From Candidatus Hodarchaeaceae archaeon (GTDB taxonomy: Archaea; Hadarchaeota; Hadarchaeia; Hadarchaeales; Hadarchaeaceae): DNA of 45,750 bases. The stretch covers positions 1 to 45,750 of the forward strand of contig JASEGJ010000008.1 in the NCBI GenBank assembly GCA_030018135.1. Reading direction: 5' to 3'. Below the pieces are notes generated by a model. It was not told the origin of the DNA. It saw nothing but the letters and a program-made list of their open reading frames with translations, and ran no database searches. The position numbers and the translations under genes are program-made. Of the stretch, positions 7,119 through 39,422 are shown one piece after another. Position 1 is the stretch's first letter, and each line of letters opens with the position of its first letter.

Positions 7119-7673
7119 ATGAACAAAATCGTGACCGTAAGCGATACCGTCCGAGTGCCGCCGAGTAGATTCGATGAGCCACTTGATGAGGTGGTGCTCG
7201 ACATCCTGCGCAAGAGCTACGAGGGTTTGACCGATAAGGACTTAGGGGTAATCCTCGCGATCACGGAGGTCAAGGAAATTGGGGTGGGCAGGATAATCAT
7301 GGGCGACGGGGCAAGCTATCACGATGTCGTGTTTGACGCGTTGGTTTACAAGCCAGAGCTGAATGAGGTCGTGCTCGGCGAGGTGGTCGAAATAGTTGAG
7401 TTCGGCGGCTTCGTGCGGCTGGGCCCCATCGATGGCCTCGTACACGTTTCACAGGTGATGGACGACTTCGTCGGCTACGACAAAAAGAAGGGCGTGCTCT
7501 ATGGCAAGGAGAGTAAACGCGCGCTGAGGGAAGGCGACAGGGTCAGAGCTCGAATCGTGACGGTGAGCATGAGAAGGGGGGCGCGCGCCGGTAAAATAGG
7601 CCTGACGATGCGCCAACCCGGGTTGGGCAAGCTGGAGTGGATAGAGGAGGAGCGCAAGGGGGCGAGCGATTGA
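7119..7673 (+). CDS. rpoE1: RNA polymerase subunit E' (Rpo7)
   Basis: DTVRVPPSRF, S1 domain (GPIDGLVHVSQVMDD), IGLTMRQPGLGKLEWI. Confidence 0.97.
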   Translation: MNKIVTVSDTVRVPPSRFDEPLDEVVLDILRKSYEGLTDKDLGVILAITEVKEIGVGRIIMGDGASYHDVVFDALVYKPELNEVVLGEVVEIVEFGGFVRLGPIDGLVHVSQVMDDFVGYDKKKGVLYGKESKRALREGDRVRARIVTVSMRRGARAGKIGLTMRQPGLGKLEWIEEERKGASD

Positions 7674-7855
7674 GCGAGAAGGTATGTCGCAGTTGCCACA
7701 TAGTTGTCGAGGGCAATGTTTGCCCCCTCTGCGAATCACCTTCCTTATCCGACGATTGGTCGGGCTATGCCATAGTGCTCGACCCTGAGGATTCCAAGAT
7801 AGCAAAAAGATTGAATATTCACCATGCGGGCAAGTATGCGCTGAGGGTTAGATAG
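7670..7855 (+). CDS. spt4: Transcription elongation factor Spt4 (RpoE2)
   Basis: CRSC...CPLC...SDDWSG...GKYALRVR; the TTG start overlaps the rpoE1 stop. Confidence 0.95.
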   Translation: MSEKVCRSCHIVVEGNVCPLCESPSLSDDWSGYAIVLDPEDSKIAKRLNIHHAGKYALRVR

Positions 7856-7856
7856 A

Positions 7857-8375
7857 TTGAGGTTACCGCCGGAGGTGCGTCCGCTCCTGAAGCGCCCGCT
7901 AGGCAAACTTTTTGCCGAGACTGGCGCGGCGATCGAGCATTTGCGAAGGTTGCGCCCGACGAGGCTGATTGCCGTCGGCGATATCGCGACCGCTGAGCTT
8001 CTCGCTGCCGGGCTAAGGCCAGATATCGCGGTAGTCGACTTCAGGGTCATGAGGGCGCCGGCGAGCGACGACATAAGGAGGGCGATAGATGCCCACCGAG
8101 CCCGCATTTTGTGGGTGAGAAATCCCGCAGGCACAATAACGCCAGAGTTGCGCGATGCGCTTGAAACGGCCTCACCGCCGGCAAAGATAATCGTCGATGG
8201 AGAGGAGGACCTCGCGGTCTTGCCGGCTGTCCTGGCGGCGCCAGTGGGCTCCGTAGTCGCTTACGGGCAGCCGAATGAGGGATTGGTTTTGGTGATGGTT
8301 ACGGAACAAAAGAAGCGCGAATTTAGGGGGTTGTTGAAGCTGTTCAAAAGGGATAGCGCCTGTAAAAGAACTTAA
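7857..8375 (+). CDS. GTP-dependent dephospho-CoA kinase (DUF359)
   Basis: LKRPLG, VGDIAT, NPAGTIT, VDGEEDL and YGQP motifs; canonical position after spt4. Confidence 0.93.
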   Translation: MRLPPEVRPLLKRPLGKLFAETGAAIEHLRRLRPTRLIAVGDIATAELLAAGLRPDIAVVDFRVMRAPASDDIRRAIDAHRARILWVRNPAGTITPELRDALETASPPAKIIVDGEEDLAVLPAVLAAPVGSVVAYGQPNEGLVLVMVTEQKKREFRGLLKLFKRDSACKRT

Positions 8376-8376
8376 G

Positions 8377-8640
8377 CGTATTGCCTAAGACGTTGCCCCT
8401 AGCTTGCCATACGGAATATGCCAATGAAAGGGTTTAGTTGGGTGTCTTAGTTAAGACATCGATTCAAGCGGCCGCGTCTTAGGTAAAACACCTATTCACG
8501 AACTCGCCAATCGTGAGGACATCGAAAGGTGGGCTTGTCTGAGGTAAGACAAGATGTCTTAGTTAAGACATCAGCTCTAACAGTCGCGGCTTAGGTAGGA
8601 CATGTACGGGGCCATTTTTACCGATGTCTTAGGTAAGACA
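8377..8640. repeat. Cluster of 16-bp palindromes, consensus TGTCTTA-(GG/GT)-TAAGACA
   Basis: Copies at 8443-8458, 8475-8490, 8536-8551, 8555-8570, 8587-8602 and 8625-8640, plus a degenerate reversed copy at 8377-8392. Confidence 0.9.
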
Positions 8641-8715
8641 CCCCAGCGGTCTAAGCCAGTCGATCTGGCCAACGTAAGCTTAATTAATCATGGGCTTAAA
8701 ATTGAGGGGGTTGCG

Positions 8716-9072
8716 ATGAAAGTTGAAATAACAGAAAAGGTCGAGAATCCGCTGCTCCAGCGAACGGAAATCAAATTTAAGGTGAATCACGCAGGCGAAC
8801 CCACGCCCAAGCGCTCAGATGTCCGCGCCCAGCTGGCCGCCCATCTCAGCGTACCGGAGGAGCTCGTAGTGATCGAAAAATTGGCGGGTATGTATGGCCG
8901 CCGGGTGGCATCGGGCATCGCGCGCGCCTACAGCTCCCGCGAGCGACTTGAGAAGATCGAGCCAGAGTACCTGATCAAGCGCGGCTTGCCAGCTGAAACA
9001 AAGGCTGAGGCCAAGCCCGAAGAGAAACCTAAGGAAGTAGGTAAGAAGGGTGGCCGGGGTCAAGACAACTAA
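8716..9072 (+). CDS. rps24e: 30S ribosomal protein S24e
   Basis: MKVEI...[10 protein letters not shown]...[12 protein letters not shown] 8716 follows GAGGGGG; the 8602 extension runs through the repeats and is rejected. Confidence 0.95.
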
Positions 9073-9232
9073 GGCGAGGCTTTACAAGCAGGAGGGTGGA
9101 AAGCTCATACGGCTTAGGCCATCCTGCCCGAGATGTGGCCATGGGGTCTTCATGGCCGACCATGGCAATCGATTGGCATGCGGGAGATGCGGCTATACGG
9201 ATTTCAAAGGCAGCCCACAAGGTAACCCCTAA
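9050..9232 (+). CDS. rps27ae: 30S ribosomal protein S27ae
   Basis: [25 protein letters not shown] zinc finger. Confidence 0.96.
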
Positions 9233-10530
9233 TCAACCAGTTTCACTTGCGCATCGAGCACGGCCGTTGAAGATTTTTCAAGCTCTGCCCTATTTTCTTC
9301 TATTTTATGTCTTATTTCGCCTAACTTTGTTTGCGTCGCGCCGATGTTAGCGCGAACTCGCTCGAGTTCCAACTTTTGCTGCTCAATCGATTTCTCCAGC
9401 TCAGCCTTTCTCCTCAACAGCGGGGACTGCTTATACGCGCTGCTTTTTGATTCCCTTTCGGCCAATAACTGCCGGTACTCCTTTTGGATGCCGAGCAAAG
9501 TTGTTGTTTTGAGGAGCTCGTGGATCCGCTCGAGCTTTTTCCGACGCTCTCGCGCGCTCAGTTCTACCTCGCCGCTTTGAATTAAGTTTTGAATATCAAG
9601 CAGAAGAGCGTTTAACATGGGCAGCCCATCGACTTCGGAAAGGGCCGCTTCAAATGGGTCATCGATATATAGATCTAGCGCCTTAGCGAGATCCCTGTCT
9701 AGAGGATGTTTCCCAATTGATACCAGATTTCTCATCTTTCGAAAGGGGCGAGAGATGCCTGAGGTGATCGAAATAAATGCGTTTCGTAGATGGTTCATCC
9801 CCTCTTCGAGCTCCAAGAGTTCTCGTTGCAGGCTTTCCAGTTGCTTGAAGTCATCGCATTTCATCAGGCGTTCTAGCTCCGTAGATCCCTCCATCAGGGT
9901 TTGGCTGAGCACACCCTCCCTCCTCTCAAGTAGCTCCTCCTCTACACGCAGCCTCTCGACCTCTTTAGCGAACTCCCTTTGTCGCGCTATTAGTGAGGCG
10001 ATACGGTCTAGCTCCCGGAGTTGTGCACCCTTCTCATTTAAGAGCTCGCCGAGCCTGATCGTTAGCCCGTGCAACTTGTGGATCGATTGGAAGAGGTTCT
10101 GCATTTGTTTTTCAAAAAGTATCGCCACATGGCGACCGTGGGCGGCGCTGGTTTCTGCCACAAGACTTACCGCCCGGGCCGCAGAATCATTAAAATCCAA
10201 CAAGCTTTGCCAAGTTAAATCTCGCGGTCTATTGACCCCATCCATCGCACGAATTATCTTCTCGGTCAGAAGACGTCGGGCTTCATTCCCCATCTTGTAT
10301 AATTTTGGATGTACATCCTCGGTTAGCTCGGCCTCGGAGATGATTTGAGTTGCTATTTTAACGCCTTCACATGCGATGATGATCTCGTCCACTTTCGGTT
10401 TTAAGATTTCTACTGCTTCAGCAGACCGGTCCTCCTTTAGGTGTTTTATTTGTTCATCAAGCAAATCGAGCGTAAGTTCCTTAATTTGAGGCGCTGCGGG
10501 CTTTTTGCCGAATATTTTGCGGAAAAACAT
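9229..10530 (-). CDS. Long coiled-coil hypothetical protein
   Basis: Heptad-rich E/L/K/R sequence with no Walker A motif seen; likely start [10 protein letters not shown] at 10530. Confidence 0.75.
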
Positions 10531-37612: not shown

Positions 37613-37946
37613 TGTCACAGCTGTGACGTCGGGGCAGCGCCGCGGATGTCACACCTGTGACACGAGGCGCGCGATTTTGCCCGCTTATAAACGACCTCCA
37701 CCCAAAGCCCTCGCGGGCTATGCCGAACTCGTATCTGATCGTCTACGACATAAGGGAGCTCGACTGCGGGACGAGACAGCGGGTGAGCCGGCGCCTCAGA
37801 AAAATCCGCGCGGTGAGGCTTCAGCAATCGGTGTGGGAGTCGAGCAGACTGGCGGAGCTGAAGAACCTAGCCGACTCGATCGGTCTGGCCGGCGGGAAGG
37901 CGTTGGTGTTGGAGAAGCGAACAGTCCACTTGTCACACCTGTGACA
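37613..37946. repeat. Three 16-bp palindromes TGTCACA-NN-TGTGACA
   Basis: TGTCACAGCTGTGACG at 37613-37628; TGTCACACCTGTGACA at 37647-37662 and 37931-37946 (identical). Confidence 0.88.
37720..37944 (+). CDS. Orphan Cas2-like (ferredoxin-fold Cas2/VapD/PaaX-type) small protein, 74 aa
   Basis: YLIVYDI...RQRVSRRLRKIRAVRLQQSVWE matches the Cas2 pattern; TATA-like CTTATAAA at 37684-37691. Confidence 0.72.
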   Translation: MPNSYLIVYDIRELDCGTRQRVSRRLRKIRAVRLQQSVWESSRLAELKNLADSIGLAGGKALVLEKRTVHLSHL

Positions 37947-38030: not shown

Positions 38031-39422
38031 TTATTTCCTCTTGAAGTAGAGGATCGCCGCTAAAGCCGCAATGGCGACGACCACCCCGGCGGTCGCTATT
38101 GGGATCCCCGCCGGCTCGCTGGGTGTAGCCTTTTGGATGACCAGCTCATCGAAGACATCTCCATTTGCGTCGATCGCCCTCATGTGGAGCGTCCCGTTCT
38201 CGTAGATGTCCAGCAGGACGAAGTGATACCTGGGCTCGGGACCGAATGCGGTGAACCACTTGGGGCGGTAGCCGGTGTACAGCGGCGCTCCCCAGCCGCC
38301 GCTCACCACGTAGGTGACGCCATTCTCGAGCGACACGACCTCGCCGGGCGCCCTGGTCCAGTCGAGCGGGTGGGAGCGCTCGTAGGTGTGGAAGTGACTC
38401 ATCAACACCAGGTCGACGCGGTACCTGTCGAACAGAAAAGCCAAATTGTCTATCATGTACTTGACCTCCGACCTGGCGGAGACCATGTCCCTGTGGAAGA
38501 CCACTATCTTCCAGAGGTAGTCCTTGGACGCCTCCAGCTCGCCCCCCAGCCAGTCGACCTGCTCCTTCCAAGCTTCTGAGTTGGGGTCCAAAATCTCGCT
38601 GTCCAGCACTATTATCCGCAGGTCGGGCCCCCAGCTCAGCGCGTACCAGCGCTCGTTGCCCGGCAGGTCGAACAGCGCGTAGTAGTTCATGGCGTGGGCG
38701 CTCGGGTCGTAGTCCGTGGGCTGCGGATAGATTATCTCGTGGTTCCCTATCGCCGGGACGATCGGGATCATCAGGCCCTCGGGGGTGACCCAGTATTGGT
38801 ACATCGCCGAAAACCAGCCGTCCCAGGTGTCCGGCGCCACTTGGTCGTCACCGTTCCAGAGGAAATCCCCGCTGAAGACGGCAAACGATGGGCTGCGCTG
38901 CGCCATGAGCTCCGAGGTATTGTTCCTAGACACCGGCCAATCGGGGTGGGGATGGGTGGGCCTCGTGTCCGACCTCGAGTCGCCCCCGACGACGAGGCTG
39001 AAGCTCGTCCTGCTCGCCGGGGCGGTGCGGAAGGCCCGCTCCTCGCTCCATCCGTAGCTGGAATGCCCGGCGATGAAGTAGTAGACGGTGTCCGGCTTCA
39101 AGCCCGTGAGCTCGACGTGGTGGATGTAGCCCTCGAACTTCGCGGTGGTTATCCCCTCGCTGCCCGAGGCGCGATAGCGGTACGCCTCCGGGTCTCCGCC
39201 CCTCGACTGCGTGTCGTAGCGCACCTCGCCCGCATAGTTGCCGGTCGTGCGCCAGCTGACGTTGATGCTGTGGGCGGTGTCGTCGCTTGCCCAGGTGAGG
39301 TAGACGTAGGCCGGCGGGTCCTGAGCCAAGGCGAATGCCGGGGAAACCGCGGCGCTCGATAGCATCAGCGCGATCGCCGCCAGCGGGATGATCGCCGCGA
39401 TTTTTCCCCCTATATCACCCAT
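38031..39422 (-). CDS. Secreted purple acid phosphatase-like metallophosphoesterase with FN3 domain
   Basis: Signal peptide; HHVELTGLKPDTVYYF; GDSR, SGD, GNHE, VFH and SHFHTYERS motifs; C-terminal TM plus KRK. Confidence 0.92.
   Translation of the reverse strand: MGDIGGKIAAIIPLAAIALMLSSAAVSPAFALAQDPPAYVYLTWASDDTAHSINVSWRTTGNYAGEVRYDTQSRGGDPEAYRYRASGSEGITTAKFEGYIHHVELTGLKPDTVYYFIAGHSSYGWSEERAFRTAPASRTSFSLVVGGDSRSDTRPTHPHPDWPVSRNNTSELMAQRSPSFAVFSGDFLWNGDDQVAPDTWDGWFSAMYQYWVTPEGLMIPIVPAIGNHEIIYPQPTDYDPSAHAMNYYALFDLPGNERWYALSWGPDLRIIVLDSEILDPNSEAWKEQVDWLGGELEASKDYLWKIVVFHRDMVSARSEVKYMIDNLAFLFDRYRVDLVLMSHFHTYERSHPLDWTRAPGEVVSLENGVTYVVSGGWGAPLYTGYRPKWFTAFGPEPRYHFVLLDIYENGTLHMRAIDANGDVFDELVIQKATPSEPAGIPIATAGVVVAIAALAAILYFKRK

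Follow-up and report, generated by a model that had tools for sequence, protein, structure and literature searches.

Several described systems tie short palindromic DNA sites to a dedicated protein. In bacteria, REP/REPIN sequences are paired with RAYT proteins; the repeats are short palindromes that lie mostly outside genes and often form composite clusters, the protein is the product of a low-copy gene that has conserved neighbours and its own repeats on either side, one genome may house several protein-repeat pairs, and the repeat content differs between close strains. ParR/parC, omega and Lrp-type arrays are autoregulated sets of operators or iterons that serve small dimeric DNA-binding proteins. 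For Cas2, the known role is that of structural partner to Cas1, and the VapD toxins are its relatives. Here, we analyse a stretch of 45,750 nucleotides from Candidatus Hodarchaeaceae archaeon (phylum Hadarchaeota; assembly GCA_030018135.1, contig JASEGJ010000008.1, positions 1 to 45,750), referred to below as the window, in which an array of 16-base-pair (bp) palindromes lies at 8377-8640, between a DUF359 gene and the ribosomal protein gene rps24e. The array belongs to a genome-wide family of repeats that is linked to genes for small, stand-alone Cas2-like proteins, comes in lineage-specific variants and varies between strains, and the sequence comparisons point to a pairing of a protein with its repeat that has so far not been described. 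Our literature search returned no account of stand-alone Cas2-like proteins tied to palindromes, and other papers may exist.

With REP/REPIN and RAYT, the Hadarchaeota system shares all the traits listed above, including a palindrome sequence that goes with a low-copy, repeat-flanked gene. RAYTs, however, are HUH/Y1 (IS200-like) transposases, whereas the protein here has a Cas2 fold; REP sequences number in the hundreds, whereas the copies here number in the tens, in an archaeal phylum; and many of the sites here are promoter-spaced or hold conserved positions inside genes. Like ParR/parC, omega and Lrp-type arrays, the system has multiple symmetric sites beside its own gene and further sites at promoters, with spacings near two, three and four helical turns, but it has no ribbon-helix-helix (RHH) or helix-turn-helix (HTH) domain and no linked partition ATPase, one site regularly overlaps the stop codon, and arrays are gained and lost between strains. 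The protein resembles the Cas2 of CRISPR systems and VapD in its sequence profile, its predicted fold, and its Asp and Q-x-S-V-W motifs, but there is no cas1, CRISPR array or VapX-like partner, and it differs in an extra C-terminal helix and in its tight link to a 16-bp palindrome family. The parS/ParB, archaeal SegAB and AspA centromeres likewise consist of clustered 16-bp palindromes with TGT...ACA ends; in contrast to them, no ParB was found to go with the sites described here, which lie away from the origin and at unconserved positions, some of them inside genes or between convergent genes.

The array and its repeat family

The window is contig C44 of a genome, G000, of 1.108 Mb in 45 contigs, with 55.5% G+C and a completeness of 92.9%. 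Throughout, promoters were inferred from A/T-rich boxes in the sequence, and gene calls are open reading frames (ORFs) read by eye. The array and its immediate surroundings comprise the following features:

7857 to 8375, plus strand: DUF359 gene, 5' of the array (Pfam PF04019, E 1.5e-35)
8377 to 8392, unstranded: degenerate copy whose right half-site (TAAGACG) is good and whose left arm is poor
8443 to 8458, unstranded: palindrome TGTCTTAGTTAAGACA, exact match to the pattern
8475 to 8490, unstranded: weak copy CGTCTTAGGTAAAACA, two mismatches, starting 32 bp past the 8443 start
8536 to 8551, unstranded: hybrid copy TGTCTGAGGTAAGACA with a variant left half-site, first element of a 105-bp composite
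8536 to 8640, plus strand: composite four-palindrome unit, 104/105 identical to G000:C41:13824-13927
8555 to 8570, unstranded: palindrome TGTCTTAGTTAAGACA, exact match
8587 to 8602, unstranded: weak copy CGGCTTAGGTAGGACA, three mismatches
8625 to 8640, unstranded: palindrome TGTCTTAGGTAAGACA, exact, the final copy and the sole one surviving in the X1 strain contig
8680 to 8687, plus strand: inferred TATA-like A/T-rich box TTAATTAA, some 29 bp ahead of the rps24e start
8716 to 9072, plus strand: rps24e gene, 3' of the array (Pfam PF01282, E 9.9e-27)

The copies at 8443, 8555 and 8625 match the pattern TGTCTTANNTAAGACA exactly, and those at 8536 and 8475 have one and two mismatches, respectively; at up to two mismatches, the window holds five matches against 0.04 expected, and none of 100 shuffles reached five. 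The six clear copies listed in a preliminary description of the array are thus real and far above chance, the sixth being the weak copy at 8587, which is retained letter for letter in a duplicate on contig C41. The same description had added a reversed degenerate copy at 8377, of which the right half-site stands but the poor left arm leaves merely a half-site, and the element was not recovered at up to three mismatches in the genome-wide motif search. It was correct as to the 340-bp gap between the DUF359 stop (8375) and the rps24e start (8716), in which the array lies, and as to the duplicated unit with equal 32-bp start spacings (8443/8475 and 8555/8587). The start spacings within the array are 19, 32, 38 and 61 bp, with gaps of 3-45 bp between copies, and the whole lies 39-240 bp upstream of the TATA-like box before rps24e, the last copy ending 39 bp from it. 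An Rfam scan of 7500-9500 returned no match at E values up to 10. Folding of the array as RNA gave z = -6.06, a value that does not discriminate, since any palindrome array folds, and the two 'terminator' matches of a bacterial-type promoter scan, which is inapplicable to archaea, were the palindromes themselves.

Across G000 there are 22 motif sites at up to one mismatch, against none for a control pattern. At up to three mismatches there are 42 matches, 28 of which are grouped in seven loci:

C44:8443-8640: six sites, the window array
C11:21091-21648: eight sites, around a Cas2-like gene
C11:31525-31589: three sites, between convergent genes
C11:97709-97778: two sites
C11:128090: one site, within a gene
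C41:13693-13927: seven sites, in a divergent spacer
C41:17188: one site, 5' of a TATA-like box

An unbiased census of perfect palindromes with 7-bp arms and a 2-bp centre (7-2-7) found 109 in G000, with the arm TGTCTTA occurring 14 times and TGTCACA 11 times; the only other recurring arms were TGATACA (7) and CCGCACT (4), the remainder occurring once each. Sites of the TGTCACA type number about 20 in the genome and are often paired 34 bp apart.

Several observations show how variable these repeats are. Within G000, the unit at 8536-8640 is 104/105 identical to C41:13824-13927, and C11:21481-21546 and C11:31525-31590 agree at 66/66 positions; the similarity of either pair ends at the outer palindromes. 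In the region 5' of rps24e, none of 24 relatives has a TGTC-type palindrome in the DUF359-rps24e spacer, and in the 18 relatives with a DUF359-like end of the preceding frame, the gap to rps24e ranges from -2 to 262 bp, whereas the window has 340 bp. Hot-spring metagenome contigs whose flanking genes are about 90-94% identical reach from DUF359 to rps24e and hold 70-123 other bases where the window has the array. X1 has 123 other letters in place of 276 bp (8350-8625), so that only the last palindrome remains, and in X3 and X4/X5, 70 letters stand in place of 296 bp, although the figures for X4 and X5 are identical and may represent one data set. The double palindrome at 8536-8572 recurs on several other contigs of the same metagenome runs. 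Copy number also varies at orthologous loci elsewhere: in one divergent spacer, G013 has five abutting 17-bp copies and G003, of the same genus, has two, and before the aIF5B gene, two species of one genus have six sites and about three. The five- and two-copy arrangements consist of the hybrid site TGTCCTATTTGTGACA set head to tail with a 17-bp period (L124, G013:C38:8557-8640; L125, G003:C19:11787-11819). Judged from these comparisons, the array is a dynamic repeat and seemingly a recent, strain-specific cluster.

Cas2-like genes and their palindromes

The eight-site locus on contig C11 surrounds a small stand-alone gene (G000:C11:21111/21117-21401), the product of which matches Pfam Cas2 (PF09827) with an E value of 1.6e-4 and 22.2 bits, against a cut-off of 23.8, and TIGR01573 with a score of 18.3, against a cut-off of 24.5. 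Its orthologue in G005 reaches 24.4 bits and passes the Pfam cut-off, and each of the 15 aligned members of the family has a Pfam Cas2 match with an E value of 0.1 or lower (best 3.3e-5). In a profile search of the PDB, the six best matches were all Cas2 (7kft_B, E 5.6e-4). An AlphaFold2 (AF2) model, with a predicted local distance difference test (pLDDT) score of 78.8, has the ferredoxin-like b1-a1-b2-b3-a2-b4 Cas2 fold plus an extra C-terminal helix. Foldseek returned no match to this model at 1e-3 or better, and its best matches were Cas2 (4es2, 4qr0, 5h1o, 8d3l_E) and VapD, with E values of 3.9e-3 and weaker and with Cas2 extending to 1.1e-2. The residue D8, at the end of strand 1, is kept in 14/15 members, and a Q-x-S-V-W motif is also conserved. 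In a large protein collection, there were 146 matches to the family at E values of 1e-3 or lower; those with names are called Cas2 or hypothetical, and where an organism is given it belongs to Hadarchaeota. The family falls into three subfamilies: A, of about 81 residues and usually encoded after a conserved 107-residue gene; B, of about 70-74 residues; and C, of about 85 residues.

Palindromes bracket these genes. Among the 19 subfamily-A loci, from 19 genomes, a TGTC-N8-GACA-type palindrome overlaps or abuts the stop codon (-14 to +7) in 17, and a palindrome lies 20 to 34 bp before the start (-20 to -34) in 14; simple arithmetic on 33 sites in 1.1 Mb puts the chance of a site in a given 22-nucleotide window at about 7 in 10,000. 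The inner bases of the palindrome track lineage, being TTA, CTA, TCA, AAA or GTA with subfamily A and ACA with subfamily B. For instance, TGTCTTA is found in G000, TGTCGTA and TGTCTTA in G005, TGTCCTA together with TGTCTCA in several genera, and TGTCAAA in G012 and G052. G000 has two Cas2-like paralogues, each with its own palindrome type, the second of which lies in the window together with its sites, of the form TGTCACA-NN-TGTGACA:

37613 to 37628, unstranded: subfamily-B palindrome TGTCACAGCTGTGACG, -107 from the gene start
37647 to 37662, unstranded: subfamily-B palindrome TGTCACACCTGTGACA, -73 from the gene start, ending 21 bp before the TATA-like CTTATAAA (37684-37691)
37720 to 37944, plus strand: second stand-alone Cas2-like gene (subfamily B, 74 residues; Pfam Cas2, E 1.4e-4)
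37931 to 37946, unstranded: subfamily-B palindrome TGTCACACCTGTGACA, overlapping the subfamily-B stop codon

Sites at about -107, about -73 and the stop codon recur in all three loci of the TGTCACA clade (the window, a near-identical copy on contig C10 and the G011 orthologue), and near the genes of more distant members, 7-2-7 palindromes of other kinds occur. In the subfamily-C genes of G011 and G019, TGTCTTACGTAAGACA lies just 5' of a TATA-like box, ending about 8 bp before it, and the G000 subfamily-A site begins 35 bp after the start of a TATA-like box. At G000:C23:2658, one upstream palindrome is fused directly to a sequence resembling the middle of the subfamily-B gene, and the whole looks like a decayed subfamily-B cassette. 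In two metallophosphoesterase-like paralogues (G000:C1:11355 and C27:293), an in-frame TGTCACA palindrome occupies the same position; a third paralogue (window 38031-39422) adjoins the Cas2-like gene and does not have that palindrome.

We searched 66 genomes of the phylum with a Cas2-like protein profile and with the site pattern TGTCNNANNTNNGACA, and 29 had at least five TGTC-N8-GACA sites, 22 of them with a Cas2-like match; among the 37 with fewer than five sites, there were six such matches, two of them with stop codons and one partial. The control pattern occurred at most twice per genome, and the TGTC-N8-GACA pattern reached at most 33 copies.

Other genes at these loci are less constant. 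The 107-residue gene precedes most subfamily-A genes (L024, L025, L027-L030 and L020), and in G000 a beta-CASP gene stands between it and the Cas2-like gene. It belongs to no Pfam family. It is single-copy in G000 (L069, C11:23259-23573) and has no copy in the ORF lists beside subfamily-B and subfamily-C genes; for these reasons, the Cas2-like protein is the common denominator. The model of the 107-residue protein (pLDDT 88.8) has a generic ferredoxin-like fold that is not evidently that of a DNA binder; it returned no Foldseek match at an E value of 1e-3 or better, and an ESM Atlas search gave a best score of 0.78 and no lead. Neither cas1 nor a CRISPR array was found beside the Cas2-like genes at any locus read, and all that G000 has of cas1 is a C-terminal fragment (C40:15831-16019, L007, profile positions 217-282).

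Some sites away from the Cas2-like genes also hold their positions. A site lies at the same place inside a lipS1-family lipoyl synthase gene in G000 (C11:128090), G040, G012 and G005 (for the G040 gene, NF053742, E 5.6e-79), and in the adjacent radical-SAM gene, sites occur at one place in G007, G002 and G005. The in-frame sites in the lipS1 (L018, L016, L080) and radical-SAM (L009, L017, L079) genes, six genomes in all, follow the local variant, the encoded residues changing to fit, and the 3' end of one orthologous gene is overlapped by a site in both G005 and G026. These conserved positions argue against purely selfish repeats. An in-frame palindrome noted in rpoE' of G003, G013 and G026 is absent from G000. 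Sites also lie 5' of the genes for aIF2-gamma (G005, L076), EF-1-alpha (G026, L084) and aIF5B (G003 and G013; L127, L123), as well as 5' of rps24e/rps27ae here, which may reflect a translation-related target set or a coincidence.

Duplex sites, mobile repeats or hairpins

The reading that we prefer, and to which we would give an even chance, is that the array consists of cognate double-stranded DNA sites of a dimeric Cas2-like protein that has autoregulation as its core function. A small Cas2-fold protein (G000:C11:21117-21401) would bind the 16-bp duplex palindrome as a symmetric dimer, each monomer reading one half-site, TGTC-NN-A. Autoregulation would come from the sites that precede the start of its gene, lie at the stop codon or follow the gene, while the other sites, 5' of TATA boxes, at gene ends and in a few genes, would form a small, fast-changing target set. 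Arrays would grow or move through duplication, slippage or gene conversion of composite units, and the six copies 5' of the rps24e-rps27ae promoter would act as a cooperative landing platform that may modulate this promoter. The idea of a multi-site platform or large operator array for a symmetric dimeric binder, raised in the preliminary description, survives in this proposal, but the best candidate for the binder has a Cas2 fold and not the HTH that had been expected. That the Cas2-like protein is the binder, that duplex DNA is its target and that any regulatory effect follows are points that we infer from sequence.

Several architectural features favour duplex recognition by a symmetric dimer. 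Hybrid sites join unlike half-sites, such as TGTCTGA and TAAGACA in G000, TGTCCTA and TGAGACA across several genera, and TGTCGTA and TAAGACA in G005 and elsewhere. Although the stem of such a site would be mispaired whichever strand is read, these sites are conserved, and in several genomes no other form is as common. The outer TGTC/GACA and the bases A7/T10 are invariant, and the central two bases vary. The subfamily-B sites lie 5' of a TATA box, in a spacer between divergent genes, and two other TATA boxes, which to judge from the ORFs belong to a putative RHH-PIN operon and a putative OB-fold gene, have the same two-site module on their 5' side. On the other side of the balance are the many subfamily-A loci whose 25-nucleotide gap between the co-oriented 107-residue and Cas2-like genes is taken up by the upstream site, together with the sites that occur at stop codons, in 3' regions and within coding regions; the palindromes may thus also act at the RNA level.

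Other findings weigh against the proposed dimeric duplex reader. To our knowledge, the Cas2 fold is not established as a sequence-specific reader of DNA, and the Cas2-like protein has neither an HTH nor an RHH, Pfam returning only Cas2 and Cas2-like domains for the 15 family members. A weak match of one of the 15 to RovC_DNA-bd was taken as chance and set aside; that family is described as an HTH variant (PMC10359603). The near-invariant Asp suggests that a nuclease centre has been kept and that the protein is no pure binder. Unusual for simple operators, and giving the family a selfish look, are the sites between convergent genes (C11:31525-31589), those within genes, the composite units shared between loci and the five abutting copies in G013. 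No palindrome brackets the subfamily-A loci of G006 and G001, and the Cas2-like profile had no match in seven of the 29 site-rich genomes, which are 65-87% complete; in one of them, G019, a subfamily-C gene is present that the profile missed. Lastly, the 66 genomes are related, and their counts, not being independent, describe an association rather than a statistical test.

Some of these points would be expected if the palindromes were non-autonomous mobile repeats, spread by a Cas2-like nuclease in the manner of REP and RAYT, with the rps24e array as a neutral or mildly useful insertion. The gene is indeed single- or low-copy, flanked by repeats and shares neighbours (the 107-residue gene, beta-CASP and Ldh_2) in several genomes, and its catalytic-type Asp is retained. 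The 105-bp (104/105) and 66-bp (66/66) units are common to different loci and have sharp ends at palindromes, 24 relatives lack the array and near strains have other sequence in its place, copy number varies at orthologous loci (five against two in tandem, about three against six before aIF5B), one cluster lies between convergent genes and some sites are in frame within genes. Nevertheless, copy numbers are low, at no more than 33 per genome, we know of no transposase chemistry in Cas2, and the sole Y1_Tnp match in G000, a 54-residue frame (C10:13220-13369, L073, positions 72-121), is only a fragment that is not flanked by these palindromes, no TGTC-type site being listed there. The distance to the TATA box is fixed for many sites, and some keep their place across families (lipS1 in G000, G040, G012 and G005; the gene 3' end in G005 and G026), which suggests selection on the site. 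We therefore regard spread of this kind as a minority reading, unlikely on the present comparisons. A broader, tentative proposal, to which we give a similarly low probability, is that Cas2-fold proteins read, and perhaps nick, palindromic repeats and so maintain or spread families of their own, with several specificities in one genome. Recognition of duplex sites and spread in the manner of REP and RAYT are not mutually exclusive. Sites that fall on stop codons, into 3' regions or within coding sequence would also suit RNA hairpins in transcripts, bound or cut by an RRM-like (RNA recognition motif) Cas2-like protein related to the VapD RNase and controlling its own translation and mRNA 3' ends. 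With the upstream site in it, the 25-nucleotide gap of many subfamily-A loci has no space left for a promoter, and a hairpin would come to stand nine nucleotides before the start; the array folds well (z -6.06), though any palindrome array would. Such hairpins seem to us doubtful at best: the hybrid, asymmetric sites mismatch the stem on both strands and are yet the commonest form in several genomes, the subfamily-B sites lie 5' of a TATA box in a divergent spacer, the two-nucleotide centre cannot loop, so that the invariant A7/T10 would be unpaired, and Rfam gave no match in 7500-9500.

The remaining explanations dispense with the Cas2-like protein as reader of duplex sites or give it another task. 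A conventional transcription factor encoded elsewhere might bind the palindromes, with the Cas2-like genes merely its most constant targets, since the sites resemble ordinary dimer operators and several stand beside TATA boxes; we consider this quite improbable, because the two G000 paralogues, with a palindrome each, would require two separate factors to track them, site richness follows the presence of Cas2-like genes across the 66 genomes, and no candidate factor is linked to the loci. The parS-like centromere, loading site for structural maintenance of chromosomes (SMC) complexes or origin-associated element that had been suggested earlier for these clustered 16-bp TGT...ACA palindromes in a conserved gene cluster now appears very unlikely. 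The genome scan scattered the motif over seven loci, with single sites at promoters and inside genes, and the array is missing from the spacer in all 24 relatives and replaced in closely related strains. ParB_N (PF02195) had no match at an E value of 0.01 or lower in the 92.9%-complete G000, in a search that found it in 11 of 14 genomes used as a control and did not extend to SegB or AspA. The Orc1/Cdc6 genes lie at C22:17983 and C11:139082, neither of them on the window contig, and GC skew has no switch near 8.4 kb. As for CRISPR, which the preliminary description had set aside because of the irregular gaps, the link of a Cas2 homologue to short palindromic repeats could bring back a degenerate or minimal array served by this protein. 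That prospect is close to negligible, however, given perfect 16-bp palindromes instead of direct repeats of 23-50 bp, gaps of 3-45 bp, inter-repeat 'spacers' common to different loci and a sole Cas1 that is a C-terminal fragment on another contig, with no cas1 adjacent.

Other repeats and wider meaning

Two further repeats emerged from the census of G000. The palindrome TGATACA-NN-TGTATCA is over-represented as well, with seven perfect copies and ten at up to two mismatches, has T-rich and A-rich flanks, and looks like a separate operator family; its sites include G000:C11:31449, C9:2981, C9:14881, C16:879, C16:4000, C24:2503 and C43:49287, among others. A G+C-rich hairpin with the core CCGCACT-NN-AGTGCGG lies at contig ends (G000:C22:30, C26:64, C39:471 and C40:63991), and on C39 it comes after what seems to be the C-terminal end of a TnpB-type protein, so that the breaks in the assembly are probably due to an IS200/IS605-like element.

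A clade of stand-alone Cas2-fold proteins with lineage-specific palindromes would give this fold a new role, the sequence-specific recognition of repeats, and would be a first candidate in archaea for a protein-repeat partnership of the REP/RAYT type. For annotators, the family counsels caution, as a gene called 'Cas2' in Hadarchaeota should not be taken as evidence for CRISPR. If the pairing is true, repeats would be recognized by a relative of Cas2 outside CRISPR, which would bear on how the adaptation module became tied to palindromic repeats.

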